A stretch of 64,000 bases of DNA from Macrostomum lignano. Lineage: Eukaryota. Every line of letters begins with the position of its first letter. The first letter of the stretch is position 1. Position numbers and translations under genes: made by a program. Shown piece by piece: positions 25,373 through 63,054 of the stretch. The stretch spans positions 701,950 to 765,949 of the forward strand of contig NIVC01000102.1 of NCBI GenBank assembly GCA_002269645.1, read 5' to 3'. The notes under the pieces were generated by a model, which was given only the letters and a program-made list of their open reading frames with translations, was not told the DNA's origin and did not search any database.

Positions 25373-25579
25373 GCAGATCTCGTACTCCCGATTATTCCGA
25401 TCGCTAAGTAGGATTATAGATAGGCAAAAAATGACTTTTAGGAAAATCAGGAGCAAAATATCTTATTGTTATAACGTATTTTTACGAATATTAAAATAGT
25501 AAAGCATAAAATGTCATAAAATAAAATAAGTTAAATTCTTTATCATTAGCTAAGAAAAGGATTATTGCACAAGCAACGC

Positions 25580-28092: not shown

Positions 28093-28839
28093 ATGGTCAG
28101 CGTATCGAACATTGTGGCTTTGATGACTCTTGTCCTAATTAGCCTCACCACCGCCAGTCAGAAGGTGTACACCCTCATTGACGGCAGCCTCTGCATCAAC
28201 GATGAGTTTGTTCAGTCCTACCCAAACGAAGTCAGCAATGTTGGCTGCGCCTCTCTGTGCTCCGAGAAGCTGCGCTGTCAGGCGTTCAGCCTGGCTGACG
28301 GTCCGTGCCAGCTGTTCGTGTTCGACAAGTGCAGCCAGTCGGTGAGGAGCTGCGGCTGCTCCAGGAGAGGCCGGGTGTTCGTCAAGCAGCGGCCGGGACT
28401 CGAGGCGGGCGCGCTGTGTCCGTCTGGCTACGGCATGGACCTGTGCGGAGTGAAGTACAAGCTGTACTCTGGCATCGGGACGTGGTTGCCGAGCAGGCAG
28501 AAGTGCGAGTCAGAGAGCGGTCTGGTCATCATGGCCGACGTGACCAGCGAGCAAGAGATGAGCCACGTGGACTGGATCTTCACCAATGGTAGTAATTCGA
28601 ACTTCTGGCTCGGAGGACTTCAGCCAGAAGGTAGTGCGGAGCCTCTGGGCGGCTGGTACTGGGTCGGCTGCAACATCAACGTTGATCCCGCTTTTTGGGC
28701 CACTGACCAGCCGAATAACAACGGTGGCGGAGAAAATGTAATCGCGAGACAAGTCAATAAAATGGGTCTCACGGATAGTAGCGACACATACGGTGCTGTT
28801 CCGAATGTTCTGTGCGAGTGCCTGTCGCCTTTTAACTGA
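28093..28839 (+). CDS. Secreted PAN/apple + C-type lectin domain protein, copy 2 (248 aa)
   Basis: Same architecture as copy 1; QPN in the sugar-binding loop. Confidence 0.85.
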   Translation: MVSVSNIVALMTLVLISLTTASQKVYTLIDGSLCINDEFVQSYPNEVSNVGCASLCSEKLRCQAFSLADGPCQLFVFDKCSQSVRSCGCSRRGRVFVKQRPGLEAGALCPSGYGMDLCGVKYKLYSGIGTWLPSRQKCESESGLVIMADVTSEQEMSHVDWIFTNGSNSNFWLGGLQPEGSAEPLGGWYWVGCNINVDPAFWATDQPNNNGGGENVIARQVNKMGLTDSSDTYGAVPNVLCECLSPFN

Positions 28840-34571: not shown

Positions 34572-35096
34572 CAGCTGTTCGTGTTCGACAAGTGCAGCAA
34601 GTCGGTGAGGAGCTGCGGCTGCTCCAGGAGAGGCCGGGTGTTCGTCAAGCAGCGGCCGGGACTCGAGGCGGGCGCGCTGTGTCCGTCTGGCTACGGCATG
34701 GACCTGTGCGGAGTGAAGTACAGGCTGTACTCTGGCATCGGGACGTGGTGGCCGAGCAGGCAGAAGTGCGAGTCAGAGAGCGGTCTGGTCATCATGGCCG
34801 ACGTGACCAGCGCTGAGGAGATGAGCCACGTGGATTCCATCTACTCGAACTACAGCTCTGGACAATCAATCTGGCTCGGAGGCCGCCAGCCAGCAGGCAG
34901 TGCGGAGCCTCTGGGCGGCTGGTACTGGGTCGGCTGCAACACCAGCGTTGACCCAACTTTGTGGAATGCTTATCAGCCAAATGCTGCTTCGGAGAATGTG
35001 ATTGCAAGGTTCTGGTATGACGCCAGACTCTCTGACCTGCACGAATCTTTTGCAACTGAGACAGTGCTGTGCGAGTGCGTCTCTCCGTTCAACTGA
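34572..35096 (+). pseudogene. PAN + C-type lectin copy 3, 5'-truncated (no signal peptide); CTLD frame intact
   Basis: Homology to the other copies starts abruptly at QLFVFDKC; open to SPFN-stop. Confidence 0.8.
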
Positions 35097-40465: not shown

Positions 40466-41206
40466 ATGGTCAGCGCATCGAACATTGCGGCCTGGATAAG
40501 TCTTGTACTCGGCCTCACTACCGCCAGCCAGCAGGTGTACAACCTCATTGACGGCAGCCTCTGCATCAACAACGCGTTTATAGATTCCTACCCAACCGAA
40601 GTCAGCAGCGTTGCGTGCGCCGCTCTGTGCTCCCGGAAGCTGCGCTGTCAGGCGTTCAGCCTGGCTGACGGTCCGTGCCAGCTGTTCGTGTTCGACAAGT
40701 GCAGCAAGTCGGTGAGGAGCTGCGGCTGCTCCAGGAGAGGCCGGGTGTTCGTCAAGCAGCGGCCGGGACTCGAGGCGGGCGCGCTGTGTCCGTCTGGCTA
40801 CGGCATGGACCTGTGCGGGGTAAAGTACAGGCTGTACTCTGGCATCGGGACGTGGTGGCCGAGCAGGCAGAAGTGCGAGTCGGAGAGCGGTCTGGTCATC
40901 ATGGCCGACGTGACCAGCGCCCAGGAGATGAGCCACGTAGACTGGATCTTCACCAGCAATAGTAATTCGAGGTTCTGGCTTGGAGGCCGCCAGTCAGCAG
41001 GCAGTGCCGAGCCTCTGGGCGGTTGGTACTGGGTCGGCTGCAACACCAGCGTTGGCAACTTCTGGGCCAGTGGCCAGCCCGACAACTACGGTGGCGGAGA
41101 AAATGCAGTTACAAAATTCCACAACATCATGGGTCTCTCGGATGTCGGTGGCAGGTACTTTGCTGTTTCCAAAGTTCTGTGCGAATGCCTGTCACCTTTT
41201 GCTTGA
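40466..41206 (+). CDS. Secreted PAN/apple + C-type lectin domain protein, copy 4 (246 aa)
   Basis: Same architecture as copy 1; QPD in the sugar-binding loop. Confidence 0.85.
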   Translation: MVSASNIAAWISLVLGLTTASQQVYNLIDGSLCINNAFIDSYPTEVSSVACAALCSRKLRCQAFSLADGPCQLFVFDKCSKSVRSCGCSRRGRVFVKQRPGLEAGALCPSGYGMDLCGVKYRLYSGIGTWWPSRQKCESESGLVIMADVTSAQEMSHVDWIFTSNSNSRFWLGGRQSAGSAEPLGGWYWVGCNTSVGNFWASGQPDNYGGGENAVTKFHNIMGLSDVGGRYFAVSKVLCECLSPFA

Positions 41207-43759: not shown

Positions 43760-44238
43760 GAGTATTAAGAATTCTCGGAATAAACAGACTGCCCTTTGCC
43801 GGATCCTGTCACTGTCACGACTGTTGCCTCAATCACATTCGGAAAGAGTTGCTTGATGATTAGCCTGGTGCCGTTACACAGCTTTGGGGAATTTAAATTG
43901 CGCAGTAGCATAACTGGTGCACCCACTTTTAACTGGAGGTTGTGCGATGGCGTTCCAGGAGGCTCTGGAGAGTTCAAGAACTCAATGGGAAACTCCACAG
44001 CATTGTCAGCAGTCATTGTTGTGTCAATTGACTTGTAGCTGTTGGTATTGCCAGGCATCTCCTTGAGCAGCTGGGAGTTGATACTATTAGCTGCGTAATT
44101 CCTGGGACACAAAATGGCTCTTCAGTCAATCAATGTCAGCCAGTCAATGTCAGAAAACATGTGCAGGTTCACGTAGACCTTTGGCTTAAGCTCCTGCACA
44201 GAAGATACGATTGTACCGAATGCAGCAATTGGTGACAG
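43760..44238 (-). mobile_element. Helitron PIF1 helicase remnant, 3' part (interrupted by the LTR element)
   Basis: YKSIDT...EFLNSPEPPGTPSHNLQLKVGAPVMLLRNLNSPKLCNGTRLIIKQL. Confidence 0.9.
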
Positions 44239-45095
44239 TGTAGAGTGTTCTACCTCCCGTTAAAAAAAGGTTAAAAGAAGATAATCGTATAATGCTACTA
44301 TAAGTAAGTAAGTACACGCATGTGCGCCTAAGCTTTGAATGAATCAAGCTAACAGAAAAATATGTTACCAGAATAATACGCCATGAGCCATTTTCCCCTT
44401 TTAGCGCAACACGAGAATTGTAATGATGCTATTTTGGATCAAAAACTTGCCTATAAATACAAGCGATCTGAAGCGGTATCGGAGCCATTCTCCCCACGGA
44501 AGAGGAGCGCTCCGAAGAGGAAGCCTTAGGAGGACTTCCTGATATACCAAGTCAATCGAGACTCGGTCGAGTTGTTGCGGTAAGCCTTCCTTATTTGCGC
44601 CGTTGTGTTAGAGACGTCTCGCTCAAGTCTATTGAGACTTGAGTCCATTTGAGTCTGTTGAGACTCCTGAGTCTGTTTAGACTCCATTGGTTGCAGTCTC
44701 CAGAAGGACTGCCCCTGATAGATCTTAGAGGACTATCAGTGGTTTCCGGAGCTATACCTAGAGTGCATAGAGGCACTGCTAGAAGAAGGAGGCTTAACTT
44801 AGACCGCAGTTTGGCGCAGGGATCCCATTGTTAATTCGGAAGCTTCCCATTGGTCCGAGCGACAGAATCCGGCCGGAACTATTTGAGGAAGAAAGAAGAA
44901 TCGGACCCGATCTACAAACGAAAGTCAGAAGTGACTATACGAGAACAACTGAAGACAATCGAGAACTACTCCGAGAGATCTCCAAAGGACTCAAGGTAAT
45001 TGAATACCTTCTGTTGACTTACTGGGTTGCCTAGCTGCTGAGCTAGCAGTGATTGTTCCTTGATTATCGAAAGTCGGGTAATAAGGAACACATCA
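44239..45095 (+). repeat. 5' LTR (857 bp)
   Basis: TGTAGAG...ACATCA; TATAAATA at 44452; nearly identical to 53960-54815. Confidence 0.97.
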
Positions 45096-45097
45096 AT

Positions 45098-45108
45098 TGG
45101 TGATCTCG
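45098..45108 (+). promoter_or_regulatory. Primer-binding site, probably tRNA-Trp
   Basis: TGGTGATCTCG 2 nt after the LTR; pairs with the canonical tRNA-Trp 3' end (PBS TGGTGACCCCG) using two G-U pairs. The tRNA identity is inferred. Confidence 0.6.
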
Positions 45109-45809
45109 CCCTCTCGGCACTACTCAAACTTTGAGCAATAGCCTGGCCAAGCTATTGTACAGTGACGAAAGAGCGACTTTATTAATTTTGCGCGCACGTG
45201 TTAGAGTTAACACTTTTCAAGTCCGTACGTTTTGAAACTCGAGTAAATTTTGGTGTACAGGTTTGAGCACCTGTCAATTTTGAGTACAGTTTGAGCACGC
45301 GTGTAAATTTTTGTTTTAACGAGCTCGAGCAAGTGTGAGTTTAAAATAAACCGAAATTAAATTCATCGGTACACTGAAAACAAACCGAAAATAAAAGAAT
45401 CGTCGACGCAAAACAAACAAAAAAATAACGGAAACATTTTGCCGGCACAAAAACTAAAACAAAACCGAAATTAATTGAAACTTCGTGAAGAGCGGAGTTA
45501 ATTGACAAAAAAAGGAAAGTCAAAGAAGAGAAAAAAGCCTTTGCAAAGCAAGAAGACAAAGTCCACTTCAACTTGAAGATACACTTTGCGGGACGCCGCA
45601 TAAGTGCGAAATCAGCAAGCGAACAGAACAAGTTCATTTGAGGACAACCAGTGGCAGCAAGCCACACTGCATTCGAAGCCAGCGAATAACAAATCGACAC
45701 CACAAGACAATTCGTTACAGTTGAGGTTTATTCCGAGGCAAACACCACACTGGACGATCCGTTACAAATCGATCCAGATCTTGAACTACCGTTCTACCCT
45801 ATCAACAAC

Positions 45810-46220
45810 ATGGCGCGGCGCAATCCAACGGTACACAGAGACATCAAAGAAACGGTCGGTACTTTCTCGATGGAGAAAGATTTTAACACATTTGTCGACC
45901 ATTTTGACCTGGTATGTAGGGAATACAACCTACAAAATCCAGAAAAGGCACAGCTGCTGCCACCTCTTCTCCAAGGTACTGCGCGAGAAATTTACGGCAA
46001 GCTGGATGCAGCAACACAGCAAAATTATCCAGCACTAATCATTCAACTGCGCGCGCATTTCAACCGTTGCGGCACAAACAGATCAGTGCTGCTGCACAAG
46101 TTACATAACAGAAGGATGCAAGCAACGGAATCCTTCCTCGCCTTTGTGGACGATATCCGCCAGATAATTAAGGCACTGCATCAGCCACCGCTGCAAGCTG
46201 CGGATCAGCAGCGGAGTTAG
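45810..46220 (+). CDS. gag: Gag N-terminal (capsid-like) part; frame breaks to the long ORF near 46172-46220
   Basis: First ATG after the LTR; FSMEKDFNTFVDHFDLVC...LQGTAREIY...RRMQATESFLAFVDDIRQII is a retrotransposon Gag pattern. Confidence 0.8.
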   Translation: MARRNPTVHRDIKETVGTFSMEKDFNTFVDHFDLVCREYNLQNPEKAQLLPPLLQGTAREIYGKLDAATQQNYPALIIQLRAHFNRCGTNRSVLLHKLHNRRMQATESFLAFVDDIRQIIKALHQPPLQAADQQRS

Positions 46221-49200
46221 CCGCAAGAGAGCGACAACGATTGATGGACCGTGAACAAAACCTCATCCAACACGTAATAAACAATGCACAGCCGTCACTG
46301 CGGGATAGACTTTTGCGCGAGAACATTGAAACCGAGGAAGACCTTTTACGGTGCGGAATGCAGTGGGAAGCAAGCGCTCCACTAATGACAACCGGCAACA
46401 ATGAAGTGCAGAAACTGACACAGCAACTAAACAAGCTGATGCAACATCAAACAGCCGTTATCGCCGAACAAAAAAGACGAAACGAACAAGCCTCAGCCAG
46501 ATGTTACTACTGCGGACAAGAAGGACATTACCAGATTAATTGTCCTCATTGGTCAACAAGATACGACAAGCCACGACAGATATTCAACAATCAGAAGCCG
46601 CAGAAACCATGGCAGCAATATCAAAATCGCCAACAACAAGGCATAAGACGCTTCGGAAATGATAGACGCTTCGGAAATAATGACCGCTCCGGAAATGATG
46701 GCCGCTTCGGAAACGAAGGCCGCTTCAGAAATAATGGCTACAGGCCACGCAACGCCAGGTACGCACAAAGACAGCCAACGCAAGCAATGCCACGATACGC
46801 GAATGCCATCACGTACACACCGGAAAATGAGCAGCAGGAACAGCAAGTGTTCACAATTGACGACTTGGAAATGGACTTCACAGTCCCGGAACTTGACATC
46901 AGCTTGATCGAAAAGAAGACGACGCACGAGGACAACACTGACAACACAGAAGAGGCGAATGAAACCGAAATGATCGAATTAAAAGAGACCACCGGAGACA
47001 GCAGAGAAAACAGGAAGAAAGTAAATCACAAGAAAAGGGAGGAGACGGAGAGCGACACCGGCAACGAAGAAAAGATGAAGACTGGCAGAGAGAACAACTA
47101 TGAATCGACAACAGTGGATGACGACAAAACAAGCACAAAAGACAAAGAAATGAAGGAAGAAGAAGAATGTATAAGTTACGGCAACGATCACGACTGCGAG
47201 GTGCATGATGACACGAACGGATACCGAGCCGAAGAAGGAATGCAGGAAGAACTGAGAGCGGAAAATCTAAGCTCCGACAGCGATCAAGGCTACGAGGTAC
47301 AATGGAAAGATGAAGAAATGGAAAAAGAACAAATGAAAGAAAAGCCGAGTTCCGACAGCGACGAATGCTACGAGATCCGATACAAACGAAATGGTGAAGC
47401 CTATATTCAAACGGTCGACTACAAGGCAGAGAAAAGATACCAAACGCAATGGAGTGAAACAACGGAAACATCGGAAGAAGCTGCAGACGAAGATACTGAC
47501 ATAACCAAAGAGCAAAGCAAATCAGAAGCCTTCCACCTGAATCAGCCAATGGAACAACCGAAAGAATACGATGCGGACATGGAGGATAACGAATGGCAAT
47601 CGCAGCCAATGCCAGCAAAGACAACGGCAAGGTCCAAGAAGTGGAAAAACTGGCTATACTGGATCATCGTGATACTACTGATAGCAGTAGTCGCCAAAGC
47701 AACGGCAACGGAAAAGCCAATGATTTGTCCAACGGATGCGCATATCCAACCGATGATCTACAAGATACCAACCGACATCAAATGCAGCTACTTCAAGACA
47801 AACCAGACGAAGCCAAAGAAGATTACACTCGATCTCTACAAGGCTAACATCAAGAAGCATCGACAACATGGAATAGTGTGCTTCAGAGACAAGCACCTGG
47901 TGGAAAAAGTTTGGCGCGGACAATGGAACCGGATCCGATTTAAACAACATGAACTACATGTGTCACACGCGGAATGCCTACAATGGAACCAAACACTGTT
48001 TTCAAAGGATGGTGAACTGGAACCAGATGAGAAGGTCGGCAACGCACAGCTGTTCAGAACAAAGAATTCAGCCAACGGTCGATACATTCACTTCTTCGGA
48101 AAATGGAAAGAATATATGGCACGCAACAGCTACTTGATCAGAAATATTCCATTCTACCACAATCCTTTTGAAAAAATGGAGTCGCTACAACTGCAATTAA
48201 GCGACTGCCGATACAGCAAAGGATGGTGTCCAACGCCGATACTGCGGAATGAGGAACTATACAGCTTACCGTTGAGTCCAACATATCATCAAGACTATCG
48301 ATGGCAAATTATACGCAGAGGCGACTCACGATATGAAGAACCATCTAAGTCACGACAATACTTCTTCGCGTGGGAAGTTGAGCCGGAAATTGACTGCAAG
48401 CTTCAAAAGTATCACACAGTTGAAAGAGGTCTACTGTCAAATACGTTTTTGGCAAAGTCAGGAGACTTGGCCTTGACGTTTCAAAAGAAGCCGGTTGAAC
48501 AGGAACTCAAATGCAAGGATACGGACAAGACGCTATTCATCTCGGAGCAAGAAATACCAGTCTATGTAAAGGATGACGACAAGCGAACCTTCCTGACGAT
48601 CATAAACGGAACGTATCAACAACAAGAAAGGCAACGACGCGACATCGAACGTCCCAAACTGGTGTCAAACCGACTACTGTCAGCAAAGATAACGGCTTTG
48701 GATCACAATCTACACAACCAGTTAAACCACTTGCATCGAACACTGGTACAGCTAACTTGCAAAATGCACGCAATCAACTTAAATTATGCCAGACAAAACT
48801 ACTATGTCAACCCTACGATGACTTTTCGTAAAATCACCGGAATGACGAACGTTTTGGCAGTTCCAATATACGAGCATCTGTTGATATACAAGTGCACGCC
48901 GATACAGCACTTCAACATCTTGCCGTCAAACACGTCAACAACCTGCTACGATAAGCCAAGGATTGAAGCGTTCTACGAAGGAAAACGAATTCAAGGATTC
49001 TTGGACACGGTACACAACATCATCGTTGGCACCGCAATACCGAGACCTTGCACCACGGCAGCAAACTACTATCAACTGGACAATGCACTACACGTCATCA
49101 AAACAACTGGAACGACAGCAAACATCACAGAACCGGAAGTAATCGTCGACGAAAACTACGACATGGAGGATTTGAAGATCCGATTCAACAGAACGAAGTA

Positions 49201-52200
49201 TACGCCATTCGCCGATATCCAACTTGACGAGATAACACCAGGATGGACGATCAACGACTTCTTGCAAGCGTTCATCACCCAACGCAAGATGATTCACCAG
49301 CTGTTCACAAGAAAGGACAAAGGAACCGGGACAGGAAGATTTCCCGTCCTTGTTTCAATGGACAGCGCCATCAAATCATTTTGGACAAACAGCTTCTGGG
49401 AGCTGCTCAATGGAAGAGGCAGCCTATATCAAGGCTTCATCTTCTACAGCGCCTGCGTTGTTTGGATAGTCACGGCGATCTTTATCATCTCGTCGATAGT
49501 ACGATGCTTCAACAACACTTGTCCCACAGCGAAACGAACAGTGAACGCCATCATGCAGAAGATACCAAGGGAAGAAGACAACAACTTGGAATTGACAGAG
49601 GATACACGTCAAGAAACTCAAGGACAGCCGACACCAGCAACGCGGCTATATCCATCGATTCCGACAACACCAACAGCACCGAGAATGCAGCCACCTACAT
49701 ATCAGCCCGAACAACACGAGCCAAAATGGCCGGAAAACTACGTCTGTACGCTACACGCCGAGATTGGCAAAGCAATGGCTCAGGTCATTGTCAACAACTT
49801 GCCATGTCGAGCACTACTGGATTCAGGCAGCTCAATCACAGTCATCTCGCAACAATTATGCAACAAGCTACGACTCGCGGTACGACCAGCAGCAATCGCA
49901 GTTGCAGGAGCAGGAGGACATTCGCTCAACATCCTAGGAAAAGCAGATATTGACTTGAAAATTGCTAATAAACAGCTGACGGTCCCGACGTACATCATCG
50001 ACAGACTACCAAACCAAGACGTCATCGTTGGAATAGACACGTTCAAACAGCTTCGACTACCATTGACCTTCGACTTCAACAAGCAAACGTTTAGGATCGA
50101 CACGGTGGAGCAACCACTGATCAATCAGATTCGAGTACTACCGAAAGTAACTCTGCAGCAAGATGTCATCATCCAGCCTGAAAGCGCATGTTGGGTCAGA
50201 GCGAAAGCGACCAGCGCGGCAGATGAAGCAATGATATTTGATCCGCACAGGAGAGTCACGGCGAAACATCAAATCATGATGCCTACGGCACTAGTGCTGG
50301 TTGCAAAAGATAAACAGCTGCCAGTACAAATCTTCAACCCGAACGCGGAAATGGTTCATCTACGACAAGGAATGTGCATCGGTCATCTCAACACTCAGGC
50401 ATCGGTTATGCTGATTGAGCACGCGACTCCACGAATAACGGAGGAAGAGTTCCAAAAGAAAATCAACCTGGACGACAGCCCGATTACGGAACAACAAAAG
50501 AAGAAAGTTCGACAACTGTTGTGGAAGTACAACGAAGCCTTCTACCATCATGATTACGACATCGGACGAGCTAAAGACATTAAACAGGAAATCAAGCTTC
50601 TACCGCACACGGAACCAATTCAGTGCAAGCCGTACCCGATCGCCAAGCATCTGCAACAACACTTTGACGAAATCATCGATAAAATGCTAAAGCACGGCAT
50701 CATCAGCAAAGCTATTTCGGCTTACTCCTCACCGTGCCTACTGGTACAAAAGAAGGAGACTAACGAAAGACGACTCGTATGCGACTTCAGACTGTTGAAC
50801 AAGTACATACCGACGGATCAGCAAAGCCTGCCGAAGATCTCCGAACTATTAGCGAAGCTCAACACGGCAAAACTGTTCACGGTATTCGACCTACGTCATG
50901 GATTTTGGCAAATAGAAATCGACAAGGAATCGCGCCAGTACACAGCTTTCAAGACCTACAATGGACAAGTCTACGAGTACAATCGATCGCCGATGGGACT
51001 TAGCAACAGCCCAGCAACGATGAGCCGACTGACAGCATACATGCTTGCAGGATGCACGAACCTGCTGCACTATGTCGACGACATTTTGGCCTATGGAGAG
51101 GATTTCGAGCGACTCTACGAAGCTACGGAGAAGGCCCTGGCGCTCATTCAACGCCAAGGTCTTAAGCTGCAACCGACGAAATGCAAATTCTTCCGAGACA
51201 ACGTGCGTTACCTAGGACACCAAGTGACAGCCAGAGGAATTTCACCGGACCCAGACAACGTGGAAAAGGTGAAGAAGTTTCCTACGCCAACCAGTATAAC
51301 GAAGGTCCAATCATTCCTTGGACTTGCGCAATACTTCAGGAAGTTCTTACCTAACTTCGCAAAGACAGCAAAGCCACTGTACGACCTGCTCAAGTTCGAC
51401 AAATGGAAGCAAGACAACTGGACACAAAGACAACAAGAAAGTTTCGACGAAATTAAACGACAGCTGACATCAGACAAACTGCTACAGCATCCAGACTTCG
51501 ACAAGCCCTTCATCATCGAGACAGACGCCTCAGGAACGGGACTCGGAGCAGTCCTACTACAGGAAACCGAGGACAAGAAGGAACGACCTATTGCCTACGT
51601 CAGTCGAGCACTCAAACCAAATGAGACAAAGTGGTCAGCTACGGAACGAGAGCTACTAGGAGTCTTGTTCGCCCTGCGACAGTTTCATTACTACATCTAT
51701 GGTTCTCCAATACAGACGATAGTACGCACGGATCATGCACCATTGACCTACGTCGTAACTACAAAAGGACAGACCAACAACCGACTTATCAGGATGACAC
51801 TCAAGATCCAGGATTACAACTACAAACTCGTCTACAAACCAGGAATTACCAACAAAGCCGCGGACGCCCTGTCAAGAGCCTATGAAGTCAACGCCATTCA
51901 TCCAATCCCTAACATCAAGGAGTTGGTGGATGAAACCGAGCGCAACAACTTCTACCAAGCGGTTAAAGACGACGACAAGAACATCAAACTCAGTCCCATG
52001 GAACGAAAATTCCTACGCAAGCAACGACAACACCTAACAATCAATAAGTCACGGCTCTACTGGATGAGCGACAATAAACCTAAGATCTACGTACCATATT
52101 CGTTTCGGCAAGCAATTCTCAACGAGCTGCACGACAACCCACTCGCTGGACACCTGTCGGCCGCAAAGACCATCGCGAGAGTGGAACAATACTACTTTTG

Positions 52201-53284
52201 GCCAACTATGTATGGCGACATCAAGCAGTATTGCAACAACTGCCATTCATGTGCTGCATCAAAGACAGGACGACGACAGAAACCGCAGCTACAGTCCATC
52301 CCGAAGTCGACTACAATGGACTGTCTAAGCATCGACATCACCGGACCACTGCCACCGAGCTGTCTCCAGGGCATCGCCTACACCTACATCCTAACCGCCT
52401 TGGACATCTTCTCGAAGTTTGCTATTGCCATACCGATACCGGACATCACAGCTCAGACAATAGCAATGAGTTTCTACAATGAAATCATTTGCAAGTACGG
52501 CACGCCGAAGAACCTCACCTCGGACAACGGATCGCAGTTTACGTCTCAACTATTTCAGCAAGTTGTGAAGATTCTCAACATTACGCAGATCTACACATCG
52601 ACCTACAATCCGAAGGCAAACATGGTTGAACGGTTTCACCGCAACCTGCACGAGATGATTACACATTTCGCGCACCAACAGCCGGAAGACTGGATCATCT
52701 ACCTGCAATCTGTAACAATGGCCTACAACAGCGCTATTCATCGATCAACGGACAATACGCCATTCTTCCTAATGTTTGGACGAGACTTCCAACCGCCGAA
52801 TCTGCTCGCACAGCAATTACTACCATCGCAGTACGTGGAAGTACCGACTTCCATTCAGAAATTCGTCACGCAACTACACCTCGCATGGAAGATCGCTAAG
52901 CACAACATTGACAACCAGGTGGCTCTGACCACCGGCAACGACGCGAGATCGACAACCCTGACGGCCGGCGACATCGTTTACCTACACTACCCGCCACAGC
53001 AGACGCATAAACACGCGCAGAAGTACAAAGGACCGTATCGAGTGGTCCAACTAACTTCACCGACAACGGCGCGTTTGGCTAATGTGCAAGATCCTCACCA
53101 ACATCAGTTCTACGTGCACATCCATCGACTAAAAAAGATTAACACGGACACGGCAACATTTCTGCCGTCACTGGACAACGCGGATCGCACGCGTTCAACG
53201 AACCGCCACATCGCGACGAAGCACGAGGAGACTCAAACGACAGAGGTGAGCCAGCCACATGGCTACAACCTACGACCACGCTAA
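46172..53284 (+). CDS. pol: Gag C-terminus (CCHC) - Env-like glycoprotein - protease - RT - RNase H - integrase polyprotein
   Basis: Frame is open from 46172. CX2CX4HX4C at 46502-46543; hydrophobic signal 47651-47707; RQRR 48629-48640; TM about 49436-49501; DSG 49820; YVDD 51071; ETDAS about 51518; HHCC and DDE integrase with GPY near 53030. Confidence 0.95.
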   Translation, partial: GTASATAASCGSAAELAARERQRLMDREQNLIQHVINNAQPSLRDRLLRENIETEEDLLRCGMQWEASAPLMTTGNNEVQKLTQQLNKLMQHQTAVIAEQKRRNEQASARCYYCGQEGHYQINCPHWSTRYDKPRQIFNNQKPQKPWQQYQNRQQQGIRRFGNDRRFGNNDRSGNDGRFGNEGRFRNNGYRPRNARYAQRQPTQAMPRYANAITYTPENEQQEQQVFTIDDLEMDFTVPELDISLIEKKTTHEDNTDNTEEANETEMIELKETTGDSRENRKKVNHKKREETESDTGNEEKMKTGRENNYESTTVDDDKTSTKDKEMKEEEECISYGNDHDCEVHDDTNGYRAEEGMQEELRAENLSSDSDQGYEVQWKDEEMEKEQMKEKPSSDSDECYEIRYKRNGEAYIQTVDYKAEKRYQTQWSETTETSEEAADEDTDITKEQSKSEAFHLNQPMEQPKEYDADMEDNEWQSQPMPAKTTARSKKWKNWLYWIIVILLIAVVAKATATEKPMICPTDAHIQPMIYKIPTDIKCSYFKTNQTKPKKITLDLYKANIKKHRQHGIVCFRDKHLVEKVWRGQWNRIRFKQHELHVSHAECLQWNQTLFSKDGELEPDEKVGNAQLFRTKNSANGRYIHFFGKWKEYMARNSYLIRNIPFYHNPFEKMESLQLQLSDCRYSKGWCPTPILRNEELYSLPLSPTYHQDYRWQIIRRGDSRYEEPSKSRQYFFAWEVEPEIDCKLQKYHTVERGLLSNTFLAKSGDLALTFQKKPVEQELKCKDTDKTLFISEQEIPVYVKDDDKRTFLTIINGTYQQQERQRRDIERPKLVSNRLLSAKITALDHNLHNQLNHLHRTLVQLTCKMHAINLNYARQNYYVNPTMTFRKITGMTNVLAVPIYEHLLIYKCTPIQHFNILPSNTSTTCYDKPRIEAFYEGKRIQGFLDTVHNIIVGTAIPRPCTTAANYYQLDNALHVIKTTGTTANITEPEVIVDENYDMEDLKIRFNRTKYTPFADIQLDEITPGWTINDFLQAFITQRKMIHQLFTRKDKGTGTGRFPVLVSMDSAIKSFWTNSFWELLNGRGSLYQGFIFYSACVVWIVTAIFIISSIVRCFNNTCPTAKRTVNAIMQKIPREEDNNLELTEDTRQETQGQPTPATRLYPSIPTTPTAPRMQPPTYQPEQHEPKWPENYVCTLHAEIGKAMAQVIVNNLPCRALLDSGSSITVISQQLCNKLRLAVRPAAIAVAGAGGHSLNILGKADIDLKIANKQLTVPTYIIDRLPNQDVIVGIDTFKQLRLPLTFDFNKQTFRIDTVEQPLINQIRVLPKVTLQQDVIIQPESACWVRAKATSAADEAMIFDPHRRVTAKHQIMMPTALVLVAKDKQLPVQIFNPNAEMVHLRQGMCIGHLNTQASVMLIEHATPRITEEEFQKKINLDDSPITEQQKKKVRQLLWKYNEAFYHHDYDIGRAKDIKQEIKLLPHTEPIQCKPYPIAKHLQQHFDEIIDKMLKHGIISKAISAYSSPCLLVQKKETNERRLVCDFRLLNKYIPTDQQSLPKISELLAKLNTAKLFTVFDLRHGFWQIEIDKESRQYTAFKTYNGQVYEYNRSPMGLSNSPATMSRLTAYMLAGCTNLLHYVDDILAYGEDFERLYEATEKALALIQRQGLKLQPTKCKFFRDNVRYLGHQVTARGISPDPDNVEKVKKFPTPTSITKVQSFLGLAQYFRKFLPNFAKTAKPLYDLLKFDKWKQDNWTQRQQESFDEIKRQLTSDKLLQHPDFDKPFIIETDASGTGLGAVLLQETEDKKERPIAYVSRALKPNETKWSATERELLGVLFALRQFHYYIYGSPIQTIVRTDHAPLTYVVTTKGQTNNRLIRMTLKIQDYNYKLVYKPGITNKAADALSRAYEVNAIHPIPNIKELVDETERNNFYQAVKDDDKNIKLSPMERKFLRKQRQHLTINKSRLYWMSDNKPKIYVPYSFRQAILNELHDNPLAGHLSAAKTIARVEQYYFWPTMYGDIKQYCNNCHSCAASKTGRRQKPQLQSIPKSTTMDCLSIDITGPLPPSCLQGIAYTYILTALDIFSKFAIAIPIPDITAQTIAMSFYNEIICKYGTPKNLTSDNGSQFTSQLFQQVVKILNITQIYTSTYNPKANMVERFHRNLHEMITHFAHQQPEDWIIYLQSVTMAYNSAIHRSTDNTPFFLMFGRDFQPPNLLAQQLLPSQYVEVPTSIQKFVTQLHLAWKIAKHNIDNQVALTTGNDARSTTLTAGDIVYLHYPPQQTHKHAQKYKGPYRVVQLTSPTTARLANVQDPHQHQFYVHIHRLKKINTDTATFLPSLDNADRTRSTNRHIATKHEETQTTEVSQPHGYNLRPR

Positions 53285-53404: not shown

Positions 53405-53779
53405 ATGGGCAACGCACTGTCGAAACAGGCGCCCCAGCCTCAGCAGCTATATGACTGCCCGATATGTTTAACTGATGACTTGGCTGTCAAGCCACCGACT
53501 ATTTGCATCAACGAACATAAAGTTTGCGGACAATGTTTAAGCGATTCACATTATATTCAGCCATGGCAGAATTGTCCCCTCTGTAGAGATAGTTTGCGAC
53601 AATGCGCCTATTGTTATTCTTGGCGCACGTTTCAATATTGTAACCACCAACATTTTATTTGCATGCACTGTTTGAAGCAAACCGCTAGTAGGGGCGTTAT
53701 AGGATGCCCCTTATGTAATAGTATGCCGCGAGACTGCACGTTTCGAAAGTGGTGTCGGATCAAACCTGATGCCACTTGA
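53405..53779 (+). CDS. Accessory ORF: N-myristoylation motif plus two RING-type zinc fingers (124 aa)
   Basis: ATG at 53405 gives MGNALSK; CPIC-x12-C-x3-H-x2-C-x2-C-x12-CPLC and CAYC-x8-C-x3-H-x2-C-x2-C-x11-CPLC. Confidence 0.8.
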   Translation: MGNALSKQAPQPQQLYDCPICLTDDLAVKPPTICINEHKVCGQCLSDSHYIQPWQNCPLCRDSLRQCAYCYSWRTFQYCNHQHFICMHCLKQTASRGVIGCPLCNSMPRDCTFRKWCRIKPDAT

Positions 53780-53944: not shown

Positions 53945-53956
53945 AAAAAAGGGAGA
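53945..53956 (+). promoter_or_regulatory. Polypurine tract
   Basis: AAAAAAGGGAGA 3 nt before the 3' LTR. Confidence 0.85.
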
Positions 53957-53959
53957 TTT

Positions 53960-54815
53960 TGTAGAGTGTTCTACCTCCCGTTAAAAAAAGGTTAAAAGAA
54001 GATAATCGTATAATGCTACTATAAGTAAGTAAGTACACGCATGTGCGCCTAAGCTTTGAATGAATCAAGCTAACAGAAAAATATGTTACCAGAATAATAC
54101 GCCATGAGCCATTTTCCCCTTTTAGCGCAACACGAGAATTGTAATGATGCTATTTTGGATCAAAAACTTGCCTATAAATACAAGCGATCTGAAGCGGTAT
54201 CGGAGCCATTCTCCCCACGGAAGAGGAGCGCTCCGAAGAGGAAGCCTTAGGAGGACTTCCTGATATACCAAGTCAATCGAGACTCGGTCGAGTTGTTGCG
54301 GTAAGCCTTCCTTATTTGCGCCGTTGTGTTAGAGACGTCTCGCTCAAGTCTATTGAGACTTGAGTCCATTTGAGTCTGTTGAGACTCCTGAGTCTGTTTA
54401 GACTCCATTGGTTGCAGTCTCCAGAAGGACTGCCCCTGATAGATCTTAGAGGACTATCAGTGGTTTCCGGAGCTATACCTAGAGTGCATAGAGGCACTGC
54501 TAGAAGAAGGAGGCTTAACTTAGACCGCAGTTTGGCGCAGGGATCCCATTGTTAATTCGGAAGCTTCCCATTGGTCCGAGCGACAGAATCCGGCCGGAAC
54601 TATTTGAAGAAGAAAGAAGAATCGGACCCGATCTACAAACGAAAGTCAGAAGTGACTATACGAGAACAACTGAAGACAATCGAGAACTACTCCGAGAGAT
54701 CTCCAAAGGACTCAAGGTAATTGAATACCTTCTGTTGACTTACTGGGTTGCCTAGCTGCTGAGCTAGCAGTGATTGTTCCTTGATTATCGAAGTCGGGTA
54801 ATAAGGAACACATCA
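53960..54815 (+). repeat. 3' LTR (856 bp)
   Basis: Matches the 5' LTR; followed by ACAG. Confidence 0.97.
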
Positions 54816-55810
54816 ACAGCCCCTCCTCAGCACTGACCTCCAAGAGATTAATAGAAAATTGATGAGAAGTTTCATCGCCATAAACTGCAGTCCTCATGTT
54901 GATTCGCATGTGGAGCTTTTCATCTGATGGCCACAGATGCAAAGATGAGGCATGCATTTAGTCTCATCTGCTGGGTTGCCACGCGAAATTACGGCCAACG
55001 TCTGTCTAAAGTCTGCGGAGAGCAGCAGGGTGACACCACCCATGAGCTGGTTGTTGCCGCGCAGATACTTTAGCGTCAGGCTGAGTGCTTCAAAAGCCAG
55101 TTTGTGGGACATGGTACATTCATCCCAGACAATAAGCTTGCAGGCTTGCAACACTCTGACAGTGCCACTGTTCTTCTTGATGTTGCAAGGTAGTTTTTCA
55201 GCTCTTGACAGATCAAATGGCAATTTTAGTGTTGAGTGAGCAGTGCGACCACCTGGAAGTAGCGTGGCTGTGATTCCAGAGGAAGCGGCAGCAACTGCAA
55301 TCTCGCCTCCATGTCTAATCTTTGACAGAAGGAGTTTGATCAGTAAATTTTTTCCTGTCCCCCTGGAGCATCCTAGAAAAGTATTCCTCCTACATTGTTA
55401 TTCACTCTTTGCAGTACCTCTTGGTACGCTTCTGCCTGCTTAGGTAAAAGACGGGGTTCATTTTCCTCAATGAACTGACAAAGCTGCTCGCGGTCAAAGC
55501 TGGTTTCTCGCAGCATCTTCCTACTCAAATTCTCTTGTCGATGCTTCTCGGCTGTCGGACGTCCAAACATGTTCAATTGGGACGATCCGTCTCGTCTCGT
55601 CTCGTTATGGCAGACGAGATAAGTTTTGTTCGCCCATCATGCTTCAGTCAGCTTCTTTTCGGATCTTGGGCGCCGAAACCGCGTACGTCATAGACGTAGC
55701 TGCAGGCCATATCAATGTCATGATGCTTTTATGTCGATGGGCATTGAAACGTCACCGTCGAGGTCCTCAGGCCCGTCTGAACGCATGTCTGGCCCCGCAA
55801 CTTGACATCC
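54816..55810 (-). mobile_element. Helitron PIF1 helicase remnant, 5' part
   Basis: MLRETSFDREQLCQFIEENEPRLL, DAPGGTGK (Walker A) and IVWDE (Walker B); joins 44238 across the LTR insertion. Confidence 0.9.
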
Positions 55811-56659
55811 CGGGCTGGCCAGGTGGAATCCACCTTGGACCCACACTATGCTGGCCAGTACTGGCTGTGGACTTCGATTTTGTATTTTCTCATGCGCTAC
55901 TCCGTACTATTTTGAGTAGTGCATAATATATACACCAAAATTCATTATGCTGAGTACACAAAAATGAAACTAATTGCTGATAGGGAATAGTCTGATTGCT
56001 AAGTAAACTTATAGATTGCAGAAAAAAGACTTTTCTGAAAAGCAGGATCAGAAGATCGAATCGTTATAGTTTCCTTCCTATATACAAAAAATGAGTTGTC
56101 TGTGGGTATGCGATAGATTTCAGAAAAATTGGCTCAACCGATTTTCTTCAAACTTGCACCATTCGATCAGAAATTTTCCTGGGACGGTACATGCATCTTG
56201 GCTAAGAAATTGCTCAATGTTAAAGGGATTAAATATTCGAAAAACATGCTTTTTTGCAAAGGTCAAGCAGCTCTTTCGACCTGAAATGCATTGTAAGAAT
56301 GGTAGAGAAAAAACTGACTGACTGAATTTCAATTCTGATAAAGATTGCATCACAACAAGTTGAAAACATTGTCAAAGAAATGCACACACGACTTGATTTA
56401 AATTGCGTAACCAATATTGCTAACTTGAACTGAGACTGATACTGGCTGACTGAGAAATTGATTGTGTCATAACTTTTTACTTTAATTGACTTAATTTGCC
56501 TTGCCGAATTGAATTATAAGGGCCACAATTCATGTACTCCAATTGAAAAGAGATAGCCTAGATACAAACAGACTGGACTGCCAACGTAGCGACCTGGGTT
56601 CGAATCTTAGTAGTGAAAAATTTTTTTTTATTAAAACACCTTGAAAACACGAAACTGCT

Positions 56660-58900
56660 AAACATAAAAAAGCACAATGTCAAACATAAAAGAGGCACCA
56701 TGTCAAACATTACATGGGCACCATTTAAAACATATACGTGACTCTATGTCAAACATTAAAGAGCCACCATGTAAAACATAAAAGAGTCACCATTTCGAAC
56801 ATTAAAGAGCCACCATGTCAAACATTAAAGAGCCACTATGTCGAACATTAAAGAGCCACCATGTCGAACATTAAAGAGCCACCATTTCGAACATAAAAGA
56901 GCCACCATTTCGAATATTAAAGAGCCACCATGAAGAAAATTAAAGAATCACCATATCGAACATAAAACAGCCACAATGTAGAATATTAAAGAGCCACTAT
57001 GTCGAACATTAAAAAGCCACAGTGTCAAACGCTAAAGAGCCACTATTTCGAACATTAAAGAGCCACCATGTCAAACATAAAAGAGCCACCATGTCGAACA
57101 TTAAAGAGCCACCATGTCGAACATTGAAGAGCCACCATTTAGAATATTAAAGAGCCACCATGTCAAACATTAAAGAGCCACTATGTCAAACGTAAAAGTG
57201 ACCAAGATGCTTGCTATTTGGGGATACTTGCTATCTGGGGGATGCTTGCTATCTGGGGGATGCTTGCTATCTGGGATGCTTGCTATCTGGAGGATGCTTG
57301 CTATCTGGGGGATGCTTGCTATCTGGGGGATGCTTGCTATCTGGGGGGTACTTGCTATCTGGGGGATGCTTGTTATCTGGGGGATGCTTGCTATCTGGGG
57401 GATGCTTGCTATCTGGGGGGTGCTTGTTATCTGGGGGATGCTTGCTATCTGGGGGGTGCTTGCTATCTGGGTGATGCTTGCTATCTGGGGGATGCTTTCT
57501 CTCTGGGTGATGCTTGCTGTCTTGGGATGATTTCTTTTTGCATTGCACTTCATTTGAGCAGTTTGTCGGTTTTCTTTGTGAAGGTTTTTTTGTATGTCGA
57601 ATATTAAACAGCCACCATGTCAAACATAAAAGAGACACCATGTCAAACATAAAAGAGCAACCATGTCGAACATTAAAGAGCCAGCATGTCAAACATTAAA
57701 GAGCCACCATGACAAACATTAAAGAGCCACCATGTCAAACATTAAAGAGCCACCACGTCAAACATTAAAGAGCCACCATGTCGAACATTTAAGAGCCACT
57801 ATGTCAAACATTAAAGAGCCATCATGTCAAAAATTAAAGAGCCACCACGTCAAACATTAAAGAGCCACCATGTCGAACATAAAAAGAGCCACTATGTCAA
57901 ACAAACACGTGACTTCATGTCAAATATTAAAGAGCCACCATGTGAAACATACACGTGACTCCATCTCAAACATTAAAGAGCCACTATTTCAAACATAAAA
58001 GAGCTACCATGTCAGACATAAAAGAGCTACCATGTCAAATATACAAAAGCCATCATGTCAAACATAAAACAGCCACATATACGTGACTTAATGTCAAACC
58101 TTAAGGAGCCACCATGTCAAACATTAAAGAGCCACCATGTCGAACATTAAAGAGCTACCATCTCAAACATAAAAGAGTCACCATGCCAAACATAAAAGAG
58201 CCACCATGTCAAACATAAAAGAGCCACCATTTTAAACATATACGTGACTCCATGTCAAACATTAAAGCGCCATCATGTCAAACATATATGTGACTGCATG
58301 CCAAACATAAAAGAGCCACCATGTCAAACATAAAAGAGCCACCATGGCGAACATTAAAGAGCCACCATGTCAAACATAGAAGAGACACCATGTCAAACAT
58401 AAAGAGCCACCATGTAAAATATAAAAGAGCTACTATGTAAAATATAAAAGGGCCATCATGTCAAACATTTACGTGACTCAATGTCAAACATTAAAGAGCC
58501 ACCATATCGAACATTAAAGAGCCACCATATCGAACATTAAAGAGCCACCATGTTAAACATAAAAGAGCCACCATGCCAGACATAAAAGAGCCACCATGTC
58601 AAACATATACGTGACTCCATGTCAAACATTAAAGCGCCATCATGTCAAACATATATGTGACTGCATGTCAAACATAAAAGAGCCACCATGTCAAACAACT
58701 AAGCCACCATGTCAAACAAAGAAGAGACACCATATCAAACATAGAAGAGCCACCATGTCAAACATAACAGAGACAACATTTCAAACGTAAAAGGGCCGCC
58801 ATGGTAAACATAAAAGAGCCACTATGTCAACATTAAAGAGCCACCTTTTTAAACATAAAAGAGACACCGTTTCAAACATAAAAGAAGTGTCATGCCAAAC
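56660..58900. repeat. 23-bp satellite (TAAAGAGCCACCATGTCAAACAT)n, interrupted at about 57205-57600 by the G-rich 18-mer array
   Basis: Period of 23 seen directly (57061, 57084). Confidence 0.95.
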
Positions 58901-58949
58901 AAAATGGAGCCACTATAAATCTAAGGAAATATCTGCACTAGCTACTTTC

Positions 58950-59450
58950 TCTAGTGGATGCTTGCTATTTAAGGATGGATACTTGCTATCAAGGGGATGC
59001 TTGCTATTGGGAGATGCTTGCTCTTGGGGGGTGGAGGGTACTTGCTATCTAAGAGGGGGTTGCTAGATATCTATAAGGTCTCTTTGTATCCAGGTTAATG
59101 CTTGCTATTTGGGGTTGCTTGCGGTCTGGGGGATGCTTGCTCTTGGGGGGTGGAGGGTACTTGCTATCTAAGAGGGGGTTGCTAGATATCTATGAGGTCT
59201 CTTTGTATCCAGGTTAATGCTTGCTATCTGGGGGATGCTTGCTATCAGGGGTTGCTTGCAGTCTGGGGGATGCTTGCTATTTGGGGGATGCTTGCTATCT
59301 GGGGGATGCTTGTTATCTGGGGGATGCTTGCTATCAGGGGTTGCTTGCAGTCTGGGGGATGCTTGCTATCTGGGGTTGCTTGCTATCGAGGGTTGCTTGC
59401 TATCGGGGGGATGCTTGCTATCTGGGGGATGCTTGCTGTCTTGGGATGTT
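58950..59450. repeat. G-rich (GGGGGATGCTTGCTATCT)-family array
   Basis: Seen directly. Confidence 0.92.
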
Positions 59451-59541
59451 TTGTTTTTAGAGGGAATGTCTGTTTTTTTATGAAGGCTTTATTTTGCTGT
59501 CTATTTGTTATTTGTAAAGAACAAGGATTCTGTCCAGATGT

Positions 59542-59568
59542 CCCCCATCGGGGGGCGAAGATTGCTAG
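59542..59568 (+). mobile_element. Helitron-like 3' terminus (GC hairpin + CTAG); second copy at 62216-62242
   Basis: CCCCCATCGGGGGG, then 9 nt, then CTAG; the 62.2-kb copy has CCCCAACGGGGGGCGTAGATTGCTAG. Confidence 0.6.
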
Positions 59569-60194
59569 TCCAATATACTAAAAATGAAAATCTTGCTTGT
59601 TTGTTTGTACGCAATCGATTAGAGAAAAAATGGCTGGACCGATTTTCATGAGACTTGCACTGTTCGATCAGAAATTTTCCCGTGACAGTACATGCATCGT
59701 GGCTAAGAAATTGCTTGATGCTAAAGGCATTAAATATTCGAAAAACATGCTTTTTTGCAAACGTCAAGCAAACTTTTCGACTTGAAATGCATTGTAAGAA
59801 TGCTAGAGAAAAAATTGACTGGTTGATTCTGATTCTGAAATAGATTGCATCATAACTGAATTGTAACTCCAACTTGAATTGCGTCGCAGTATTGAAAATG
59901 CAGTGTGGAAGCGTAGCACCAGACGTGATTTAGATTGCGTAACCATATTCTCAACATTAATTGAGACTGATGCTGACTTGCCTGGGAAATTGATTATGTC
60001 ATAACTGCTTCGTGAGTGAGTGTTGAATTATATGAGTGCTACAATTTCAATTATAAATTCGATAAGATCTAGCCTAGATGTGAACAGACTGGACTGCTAA
60101 TGCAGCGACCTGGCTTCGAATCTTAGTAGCGAAAATTTTTTTATTAAAAGCTTTTATTCAAAAAATAATAAAGGACTAAAGGCGTAATGTAAAG

Positions 60195-61300
60195 AATCAT
60201 AGAATTGTCATGCAAAAAATCATAGAAGCGTCATGTAAACAATCCTAGAAGCGTCATGTAAACAGTCATAGAAGCGTCATGAAACAATCATAGAAGCGTT
60301 ATGTAAAATCATAGAATCGTCCTGCAAAAATCGTACCGGTAGAAGCGTCATGTAAAAATCATAGAAGCGTTATGTAAAAATCATAGAAGCGTCATGTAAA
60401 AATCATAGAAGCGTCATGTAAAAATCATAGAAGCGTCATGAAACATCATAGAAGCGTCATGTAAAAATCATAGAAGCGTCATGTAAACAATCCTAGAAGC
60501 GTCATGCAAACAATCATAGAAGCGTCATGTAAAAAATCATAGAAGCGTCATGTAAAAAATCATAGAAGCGTCATGTAAAAAATCATAGAAGCGTCATGTA
60601 AAAAATCATAAAAGCGTCATGTAAAAATCATAGTAGCGTCATGTAAAAATCATAGAAGCGTTATGTAAAAATGATAGAAGCGTCATATAAAAAATCATAG
60701 AAGCGTCATGTAAAAATCATAGAAGCGTTATGTAAAAATCATAGAAGCGTCATGTAAACAGTCATAGAAGCGTCATGAAACAATCATAGAAGCGTCATGA
60801 AACAATCATAGAAGCGTCATGTAAAAATCATAGAAGCGTCATGTAAACAATCATAGAAGCGTCATGTAAACAATCATAGAAGCGTCATGTAAACAATTAT
60901 AGAAGCGTCATGTAAACAATCATAGAAGCGTCATGTAAAAAATCATAGAAGCGTCATGTAAACAATCATAGAAGCGTCATGAAACAATCATAGAAGCGTC
61001 ATGTAAACAATCCTAGAAGCGTCATGTAAACAATCATAGAAGCGTCATGTAAAAAATCATAGAAGCGTCATGTAAAAAATCATAGAAGCGTCATGTAAAC
61101 AATTATAGAAGCGTCATGTAAAAAATCATAAAAGCGTCATGTAAAAATCATAGAAGCGTCATGAAACAATCATAGAAGCGTCATGTAAAAATCATAGAAG
61201 CGTCATGTAAAAAATCATAGAAGCGTCATATAAAAATCATAGAAGCCTCATTTAAAAACTAAAGAAAGTGTCATTTAAAAAATTAAGAAGCATCATGGTA
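60195..61300. repeat. 22-23-bp satellite (ATCATAGAAGCGTCATGTAAAA)n
   Basis: Seen directly. Confidence 0.96.
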
Positions 61301-63054
61301 GAATAAAAGAAGCGTCATATCAGACATGAAAGGTGTCATGTAAAAATTAAATGAAGCTATAGTGCTGTGCTAGGGAGAAAAACTGAGACGTCAAGGCTCA
61401 CAGAGAATAACTGAGATTTTGGGGGCGTTTCTGAGATGTCAAAGCAACAGTCAGAAGCTACTTCAAAGTTCATTTACTTTACTCAATTTTTTTATTACAT
61501 TCTTTGTTGGCTCGGCCACGGGGGGCGCTGATAGAAGAAGAGTCATGTAAAAAATAAAAGTAGCACTATGTATACATAAAAGAAAAGTCATGTCGAAGTT
61601 AAAAGATTCATTTGGGAATTGCTACGATGTCAAAGCTTGGAGGGAATCGTTATAGTGCTGTGATTCTTAAAGAAAGAATCACTAAAATGTCAAGGCTTAG
61701 GGGAGAAGAATTGCTGAGATTCAAGGCTTTAGGTTGGGTTAAAGTTAGGTTAGGTTAGGTGTGGGTTGAGGGTTATATTTTATCGGGTTTCAAGGTTAAC
61801 GGGGGATTTTTCAGATTTCTAGGTTTATGGAGGCCATCGCTGACATGTCAAGGCTTACGGGGGGAATAGCTGAGATGTCAAGGCTCACGGGGGTATAAAT
61901 GAGATTTCAAAGCTAAAGTCAGAAGCTACATGTAGTTTATTGAAAACTTTTTATTACATTATTTGATGCCTCCTCAGGGGAGGGATCGCTGATAAAAAAG
62001 CGTAATGTAAAAAATAAAAGAAGCTTCATGTCGAAGTTAAGAGATTCATTTGGGAATCCATTGCATTGCTGAGATGTCAAGGGGGGAGTTGATATGTTAA
62101 AGCTTGTGGGGGGGATTACTGACATGTCAAGGCTTACAAGGTTTGACAGGAGATTTTTTAAGATTTCAAGGATACATGTAGCTTATTAAAAAAACGTGTA
62201 TTGCATTTCTTTGGCTCCCCAACGGGGGGCGTAGATTGCTAGTCTCAATCTATAATTTTATCTCCTACCTACCTAATTATGTATGTTGTTAAAGCCAAGT
62301 TGTAATCAATTGTGTTCAATCTTACCCTCCTTACCTGTGTACGTTGCAAAAACCAATATTTAATCAATCGTTTTCAATCTCACTTTCTCAAATCGTTCTA
62401 ATAAAATCCTGACGATGCACCATGGCGTGCGAAACGCGTTGGAGTTATTAGAAATTGCAATCATATTCAAATGTTGATAATAAGCTTTCTAGAGATGAGA
62501 AGAGAGATGAAAGAAAAGAGGGATGAGGGAAGATACGAGAGAAGAGGGGAGAGAGGAGAGAGGGAAAAAGAGAATTGAGATGAGAGGAGAGACGAGGGAC
62601 GAGAGAGAAGAGAGGAAACAGAAGAGAAGATAGAAGTTTCAAAGGATCCAAGGGACGTAGGGAGAGTCAGGAAGAGGCCAGAGTTTGCCAATACATGTTT
62701 TAGAGTCAGACAGACATTGCCTGACATTCTGTGCAGCACCCCAACTAACAATATCAAATGTTTGCCTCAAATACTAATTTTACACGAATGTAATTCATTT
62801 TATGTTTACCTCTATCCTACTAACTATTAACAAGTTTTTGTTTGAGTATGGCCTCAGATTTCCGAATACATGCAAAAATAGTTCCGGGGATTGGAATTCC
62901 CCGGGTCCAAAATCCGCTGGTTTCAACAGCTTGTATATATGTCCCCGTCCCCGTCCCTCGTCCACGTCCAGAGCGACTAGCAAGCGGAGTTTCTGCGTGA
63001 CTTAGCTTAATACACACTGCTTTACTTTATTTCTCTCTGCTCGAAATCTGTCAG

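Follow-up and report, generated by a model that had tools for sequence, protein, structure and literature searches.

Retroviral Gag proteins carry late domains, such as the PTAP and YPXnL motifs of HIV-1 p6, the YPDL of EIAV p9, and the PPPY of oncoretroviruses, and Ebola VP40 carries PTAPPEY. The NS3 protein of Bluetongue virus is located at membranes. In the parts of PMC7995964 searched, NS3 is described as a non-structural protein bearing PSAP and PPXY, the tail of HSV-1 gB is tied to ubiquitylation and MVB sorting, and late domains are said to work independently of position and often to be combined.

Errantiviruses with a GAG-ENV-POL layout and an HSV/gB-type Env are described from nematodes, bryozoans, and flatworms in the parts of PMC13524379 searched, where the spread between cells of env-carrying invertebrate retrotransposons is called elusive for most. 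The references there include Sacco et al. 2022, and one row of supplement 1 is Platyhelminthes_Rhabditophora_Mlig_errantivirus_2. The main text of that source gave 0 matches for "late domain", "ESCRT", "budding", "cytoplasmic", "RING", and "zinc finger", and tails and accessory RING-like ORFs are not described in the parts searched. Our literature searches, in which subscription journals were thinly covered, returned no report of late-domain motifs in these elements, no paper on such RING ORFs, and no demonstration of enveloped particles.

In this study, we examine the Env tail of one such element from Macrostomum lignano, in which an initial annotation had noticed three clustered motifs and had proposed budding signals on the envelope tail rather than on Gag. 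Comparisons with close copies, divergent families, and distant Env relatives indicate that the motif cluster is real and selected; its placement on a fusogen-Pol precursor is unusual, and its function is putative.

Layout and setting of the element

The window, that is, the whole stretch of DNA analyzed, comprises 64,000 nt of assembly GCA_002269645.1 (contig NIVC01000102.1, positions 701,950-765,949, forward strand). It contains a young Ty3/gypsy LTR retrotransposon on the plus strand, with TG...CA LTRs, a target site duplication, a primer-binding site (PBS), a polypurine tract, and Pol domains in the order PR-RT-RH-IN. The 5' LTR (44239..45095) directly follows the duplicated ACAG at 44235-44238, and the 3' LTR (53960..54815) is preceded by the polypurine tract (53945-53956) and followed by ACAG; the two LTRs are near-identical, differing by 1 substitution and one 1-nt gap. 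The reverse complement of the 12-nt PBS (45098..45109) is the PBS catalogued for Mlig_errantivirus_2, which also has an LTR of ~860 nt and an LTR spacing of 9727, as compared to 9721 in the window (PMC13524379, parts searched). The element type is therefore already known, since that source catalogues both the family and its layout.

Gag, the gB-type Env, and Pol of the element share one reading frame, which is frameshifted in the gag of the window copy. A capsid-like N-terminal Gag frame (45690..46220) is cut off near 46200 from an open frame of 2370 aa (46172..53284) that holds the rest of Gag, a CCHC knuckle, Env, its tail, PR, RT, RNase H, and IN. The window copy thus has no intact Gag-Env-Pol frame, whereas several other copies of its family, here family A, have one uninterrupted frame of 2480-2538 codons. 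The nucleocapsid zinc knuckle lies at 46502..46549 (Pfam zf-CCHC, E 0.003, under the curated cut-off), and downstream of it in the Gag linker, four 18-nt repeats at 46649-46736 encode a repeat of the RFGND type. Pfam places the aspartyl protease (ALLDSGS), the first Pol domain, at aa 1202-1298 (49775..50065), and RT, RNase H, and integrase, in Ty3/gypsy order, at 50747..52612. Contigs from 4 runs, whose RNA nature was guessed, span 30 of 30 bins, with no GT..AG ends among the joints listed.

The element is inserted into a disrupted PIF1-like helicase sequence, probably a Helitron, which was recognized by eye on the minus strand at 43765-44121 and 54894-55397. Elsewhere the window holds large arrays of 14-24 nt minisatellites (154-1120, 25478-26980, and 56569-61320) and four to five copies of a dispersed repeat of ~500 nt (13594-14134, 28142-28679, 34572-34945, and 40512-41049).

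Between Gag and PR lies a domain of ~600 aa with two flanking hydrophobic helices and a furin-type site. By hydropathy, Env starts with an internal signal-peptide-like helix (47651..47710), at a position common to other families, and its ectodomain (47708..49432), which includes the RQRR site (48629-48640), ends at a transmembrane (TM) helix of aa 1088-1113 (49433..49510). A six-domain Env profile run against the PDB matched chains of herpesvirus gB, at best with E 4.6e-13, and a single-sequence PDB search with Env returned no viral protein. Structure prediction reached pLDDT 30.8 from the single sequence and gave a partial model from 6 sequences (pLDDT 54.7, pTM 0.32), with which Foldseek found HSV-1 gB at E 1.1e-19 and a TM-score of only 0.22. 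A Monjiviricetes/rhabdovirus-like glycoprotein identity (Atlas score 0.90, low recognition) was rejected, as the profile and fold searches favor herpesvirus gB. By these searches the window element is an HSV/gB-type GAG-ENV-POL errantivirus, whose Gag and Pol are separated by a predicted class III ectodomain like that of gB. The nearest named protein, labelled Macrostomum lignano, is 93% identical; word-indexed homologue searches found only 2 close proteins, and none for the divergent family D.

The copy in the window is of the short form: its single accessory ORF (53405..53779), reduced in length, is cysteine-rich and RING-like and begins MGNALS. Long-form copies of families A and B (L068, L075, L061, L062, and L065) have two such ORFs between IN and the 3' LTR, each of which seems to encode a pair of RING-like Cys/His clusters and a helical C-terminal region; RING matches to them in Pfam were mostly under the cut-off (best E 1.3e-06). 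The first ORF of family A starts MGNALS or MGNAQS, which we take to be myristoylation-like. These ORFs could possibly encode a ubiquitin ligase of the element's own, which would fit the PPxY/ubiquitin theme.

The three motifs and their recurrence

Pattern scanning confirmed that LYPSI (49646..49660), PTAP (49670..49681), and PPTY (49691..49702), all on the plus strand, fall within 19 residues between the TM helix and the protease, as first noted. They occupy aa 1159-1177 of the 2370-aa frame, across which each is unique of its kind, and the trio begins ~45 aa past the TM helix and stops ~25 aa short of the protease domain. LYPSI is of the YPx[L/I] (ALIX) type and is also YxxPhi-compatible, PTAP is of the TSG101 type, and PPTY is a PPxY motif of the NEDD4/WW type, so that each matches the late-domain consensus P(T/S)AP, PPxY, or YPx(n)L/I. 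The Pro/Thr-rich Env tail doubles as the linker to Pol, a role that the initial annotation touched on only by placing the motifs between the TM and the protease. From the two hydrophobic helices that bracket the gB-type ectodomain, we infer that the motif segment is a cytoplasmic tail; the initial annotation was right to place it after the TM helix, and its cytosolic side is a prediction from hydropathy. All three motifs were present in 17 of 200,000 shuffles of the 98-aa tail, counted with a loose YPx1-3[LI] pattern.

Conservation was first assessed among close copies. Searches of the species' own genome gave at least 40 matches at the DNA level and at least 96 at the protein level. Of 89 fetched family-A loci, many being one place twice, 10 were removed because they contained stops or frameshifts or were short at the ends, and the remaining 79 reduced to 23 distinct sequences. 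Across these 23 copies, amino-acid changes affected 1 of 10 core motif codons, as compared to 30 of 62 codons in the rest of the tail (Fisher p 0.036), a test that is weak alone because the copies are related. The one change is PTAP to PPAP in a single copy; synonymous variants in the core motif codons number 6, and the variable residue of PPxY is T, N, G, or I. In six copies (L011-L016), the motif codons are retained despite a common frameshift in the proximal tail, which suggests a broken sub-lineage that was copied repeatedly. A YPAL/YPALII sequence in the family-A capsid, which family B lacks, was not counted as a late domain.

Further families were reached via a PF24664 search and weaker protein matches. 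The species has at least four further GAG-ENV-POL families, all deeply divergent: C, D, E, and F (L109-L118, L110/L114, and P0003). Families C and D each carry three CCHC knuckles. The Envs of A and B are 63-64% identical and those of C and D 60%, with 21-24% identity between A/B, C/D, and E, and tails of different families are dissimilar save for short motifs. The family B tail has PTAP then IYPKI (PNAP and IYPRI in one copy), that of C has PPAP then LYPKI, that of D has PSAP then IYPTI, and that of F (P0003) has PSAP then LYPTL; a scan of the family E tail (L110) found none of the three motifs. Across the six families' tails, YPx[L/I] occurs in 5/6, P(T/S)AP in 4/6, and PPxY in 1/6, and motif order varies. 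Comparison with the surrounding linker, the check originally suggested, thus supports the motifs on two counts, as their codons are better kept in family A and they recur in otherwise dissimilar tails. The original interpretation is thus supported in part, but the trio is not a conserved unit; in these sequences, it is peculiar to family A. The contrast originally drawn with Gag also needs qualification, for family-A Gag, when scanned, had no P(T/S)AP and no PPxY, but family B has PPPY or PPAY ahead of the Env signal peptide, toward Gag (L061 aa 590, L065, and L067), and none in its tail, as if this module had moved between two cytosolic linkers.

Recurrence was then measured in distant relatives. 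The Env profile, run against 1.84 billion representatives, gave 481 matches at E <=0.001, and the distant-relative counts given here and below come from the best 150 of these 481. With P0002 added, the set held 151 proteins, of which 146 were scored, with a TM call in 88 and none in 58; removal of 2 family-A proteins, 12 doubtful TM calls, and 1 short tail left 73 tails. P[TS]AP was found in 11 of the 73 (0.64 expected from shuffles), PPxY in 11 (1.55 expected), [LIVM]YPx[LI] in 8 (0.51 expected), and YPx[LI] in 10-11 (2.3 expected). At least one motif was present in 25/73 tails, as compared to 4.4 expected, and two or more kinds in 7/73, as compared to 0.14. None of 1000 shuffles attained the counts of P[TS]AP, PPxY, or [LIVM]YPx[LI]. 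Consistently, none of 12 permuted decoy motifs was enriched in these tails (the top one, PxPY, 4 versus 1.57), nor was P[^TS]AP (1 versus 3.8); YPxxx[LI] was likewise not enriched (3 versus 2.2) and was dropped.

The excess is specific to the tail. In the same proteins, the three motifs were at baseline in the pre-signal linker (3/54 versus 2.6) and in the ectodomain (6/73 versus 7.2), and Pol showed a slight excess of PPxY (3/17 versus 0.8). The tail excess was robust to use of all 86 undropped tails, to dipeptide shuffles, and to removal of five close rows; the wider set therefore bears out that the motifs are not chance. P0016 has an overlapping PTAPPTY. Motifs were present in 12/34 proteins with an in-frame protease after the tail and in 13/34 whose record stops after the tail, where some stops may be truncations. 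The motifs nevertheless appear conserved above the surrounding linker rather than universal, since 48/73 distant tails have none of the three kinds; of 20 proteins that have a long Gag part and no tail motif, 3 have a motif in Gag. In a quickly built Env tree (76 rows), motif presence needs at least 19 changes, 13 of them forced by starred branches, and is patchy and weakly clustered (19 changes versus 23 shuffled). Absence from intact relatives had been named at the outset as evidence against a role; the motifs recur in most families of the species, but family E and these 48 distant tails go without.

Release, sorting, and other readings of the tail

Because the motifs recur far above chance in distant relatives, they likely recruit ESCRT for particle release. 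We favor, with moderate confidence, the view that they are ESCRT- and NEDD4-recruiting late domains on the cytosolic tail of an Env-Pol precursor, on the basis of their location, their selective conservation, and the tail specificity of their enrichment. In this model, Gag would be held at the membrane by the internal signal peptide, which would also direct the gB-type ectodomain to the lumen, and the TM helix would bring the chain back to the cytosol, leaving the tail and PR-RT-IN suspended beneath the membrane as an Env-Pol precursor. At the site of budding of an enveloped particle, the motifs would recruit ALIX, TSG101, and a NEDD4-type ligase, and ESCRT-III brought by them to the bud neck would carry out scission. 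Pol would be released later, within the particle, by the viral protease. Single motifs would be exchangeable modules, gained, lost, and reordered between lineages. More tentatively, and short of calling it probable, we propose that one polyprotein spans the membrane twice, that its fusogen tail serves as both p6 and Gag-Pol tether, engaging ESCRT via three late-domain types and carrying Pol into the bud, and that late domains were gained repeatedly on gB-type Env tails of invertebrate retroelements.

Candidate host partners are encoded in the genome. A TSG101 UEV gene is over the Pfam cut-off, and its alignment with the human domain is gap-free (E 1.4e-44). Of the residues that we take to line the PTAP pocket, T58, Y68, N69, T92, M95, P139, and V141 are kept, and Y63 and F142 are replaced by H and V, respectively. 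ALIX V-domain exons also match over the Pfam cut-off. A complex prediction of the host UEV with a 33-aa tail peptide, made without an alignment, scored 0.31 against a mark of 0.34, which counts neither for nor against binding.

The main rival, which we consider less likely, is endosomal sorting of Env. The motifs would bind ESCRT, NEDD4, or clathrin adaptors, but would sort the Env precursor to endosomes or MVBs or clear it from the surface, and so set the assembly site or limit fusion toxicity instead of driving scission. YPSI, YPKI, YPTI, and YPTL all match the YxxPhi sorting consensus, and the generic Y[^P]x[LI] is mildly enriched in the distant tails (38 versus 23), so that part of the tyrosine signal may be endocytic. 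This enrichment is 1.6-fold, far below that of the proline form [LIVM]YPx[LI] (8 versus 0.51); moreover, dileucine signals are at baseline (9 versus 8.2), and P(T/S)AP is no AP-2 signal. The distance of motifs from the membrane, at least 40 residues from the TM call in 31/32 matches, is compatible with sorting or late-domain use. Precedents for sorting are the tail-dependent ubiquitylation and MVB sorting of HSV-1 gB and the use of PPxY-like motifs by host channels for endocytosis (PMC7995964, parts searched).

A further reading, which we judge improbable, is that env inserted into a p6-like Gag terminus, which this segment would represent. The viral protease would cleave it from the TM helix, or it would be a legacy of a budding ancestor, and it would be an Env tail by position only. 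Like lentiviral p6, it sits just before the protease (median distance to the protease motif, 58 aa), and the motif-bearing Gag-Env proteins P0032, P0039, and P0156 end after it, as Gag ends after p6. Yet P0034 and P0124, signal-peptide-first glycoproteins that are putative retroelement Envs, end in such motifs too. Other protease loci of the genome also argue against this reading. Fifty were fetched, and 13 clusters were made from 47 of them; an in-frame scan upstream of the protease found no motif at any site listed, and an any-frame scan of the 450 nt before it found no P(T/S)AP and no PPxY in the 13 clusters, and YPxI in 2/13, none in frame. Only seven clusters, at most putative sister lineages, are verifiably env-less, with a CCHC knuckle 55-122 aa before the protease.

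Chance motifs in a proline-rich linker are the least probable explanation and, for the motif set, largely refuted by these comparisons: the Pro/Thr-rich tail, the weak within-family test, and the patchy tree would suit it, but no shuffle reached the observed counts, and same-letter decoys and control regions stayed at baseline.

Comparison with known budding systems

If the motifs are late domains of the Env-Pol precursor, they would provide sequence-level evidence that GAG-ENV-POL errantiviruses exit as enveloped particles. Selection for ESCRT-type motifs specifically in the tail points to a definite mechanism, open to testing through the host, argues that these Envs act in budding particles, and places late domains on a fusogen-Pol precursor rather than on Gag or matrix. 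As young copies of the family are numerous, particles could be sought in the animal.

The window element has in common with the GAG-ENV-POL errantiviruses of PMC13524379, as far as the parts searched describe them, the Ty3/gypsy order of Pol, an Env between Gag and Pol, and a gB-type ectodomain between two hydrophobic helices. It resembles HSV-1 gB in its homologous ectodomain and in a tail tied to the ESCRT/MVB pathway, except that the parts of PMC7995964 searched tie HSV-1 gB to ubiquitylation and sorting and describe no canonical late-domain motifs for it. The three kinds of motif are those of retroviral Gag and Ebola VP40, likewise grouped in a disordered stretch that, like p6, lies directly upstream of the protease. 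In contrast, retroviral Gag and matrix carry the motifs on a soluble protein, whereas here they follow a TM helix and would sit on an Env-Pol precursor. Bluetongue virus NS3 is alike in having late domains outside Gag or matrix; the difference is that NS3 is non-structural and no fusogen, while the carrier in the window element would be the class III fusogen itself, fused to Pol.
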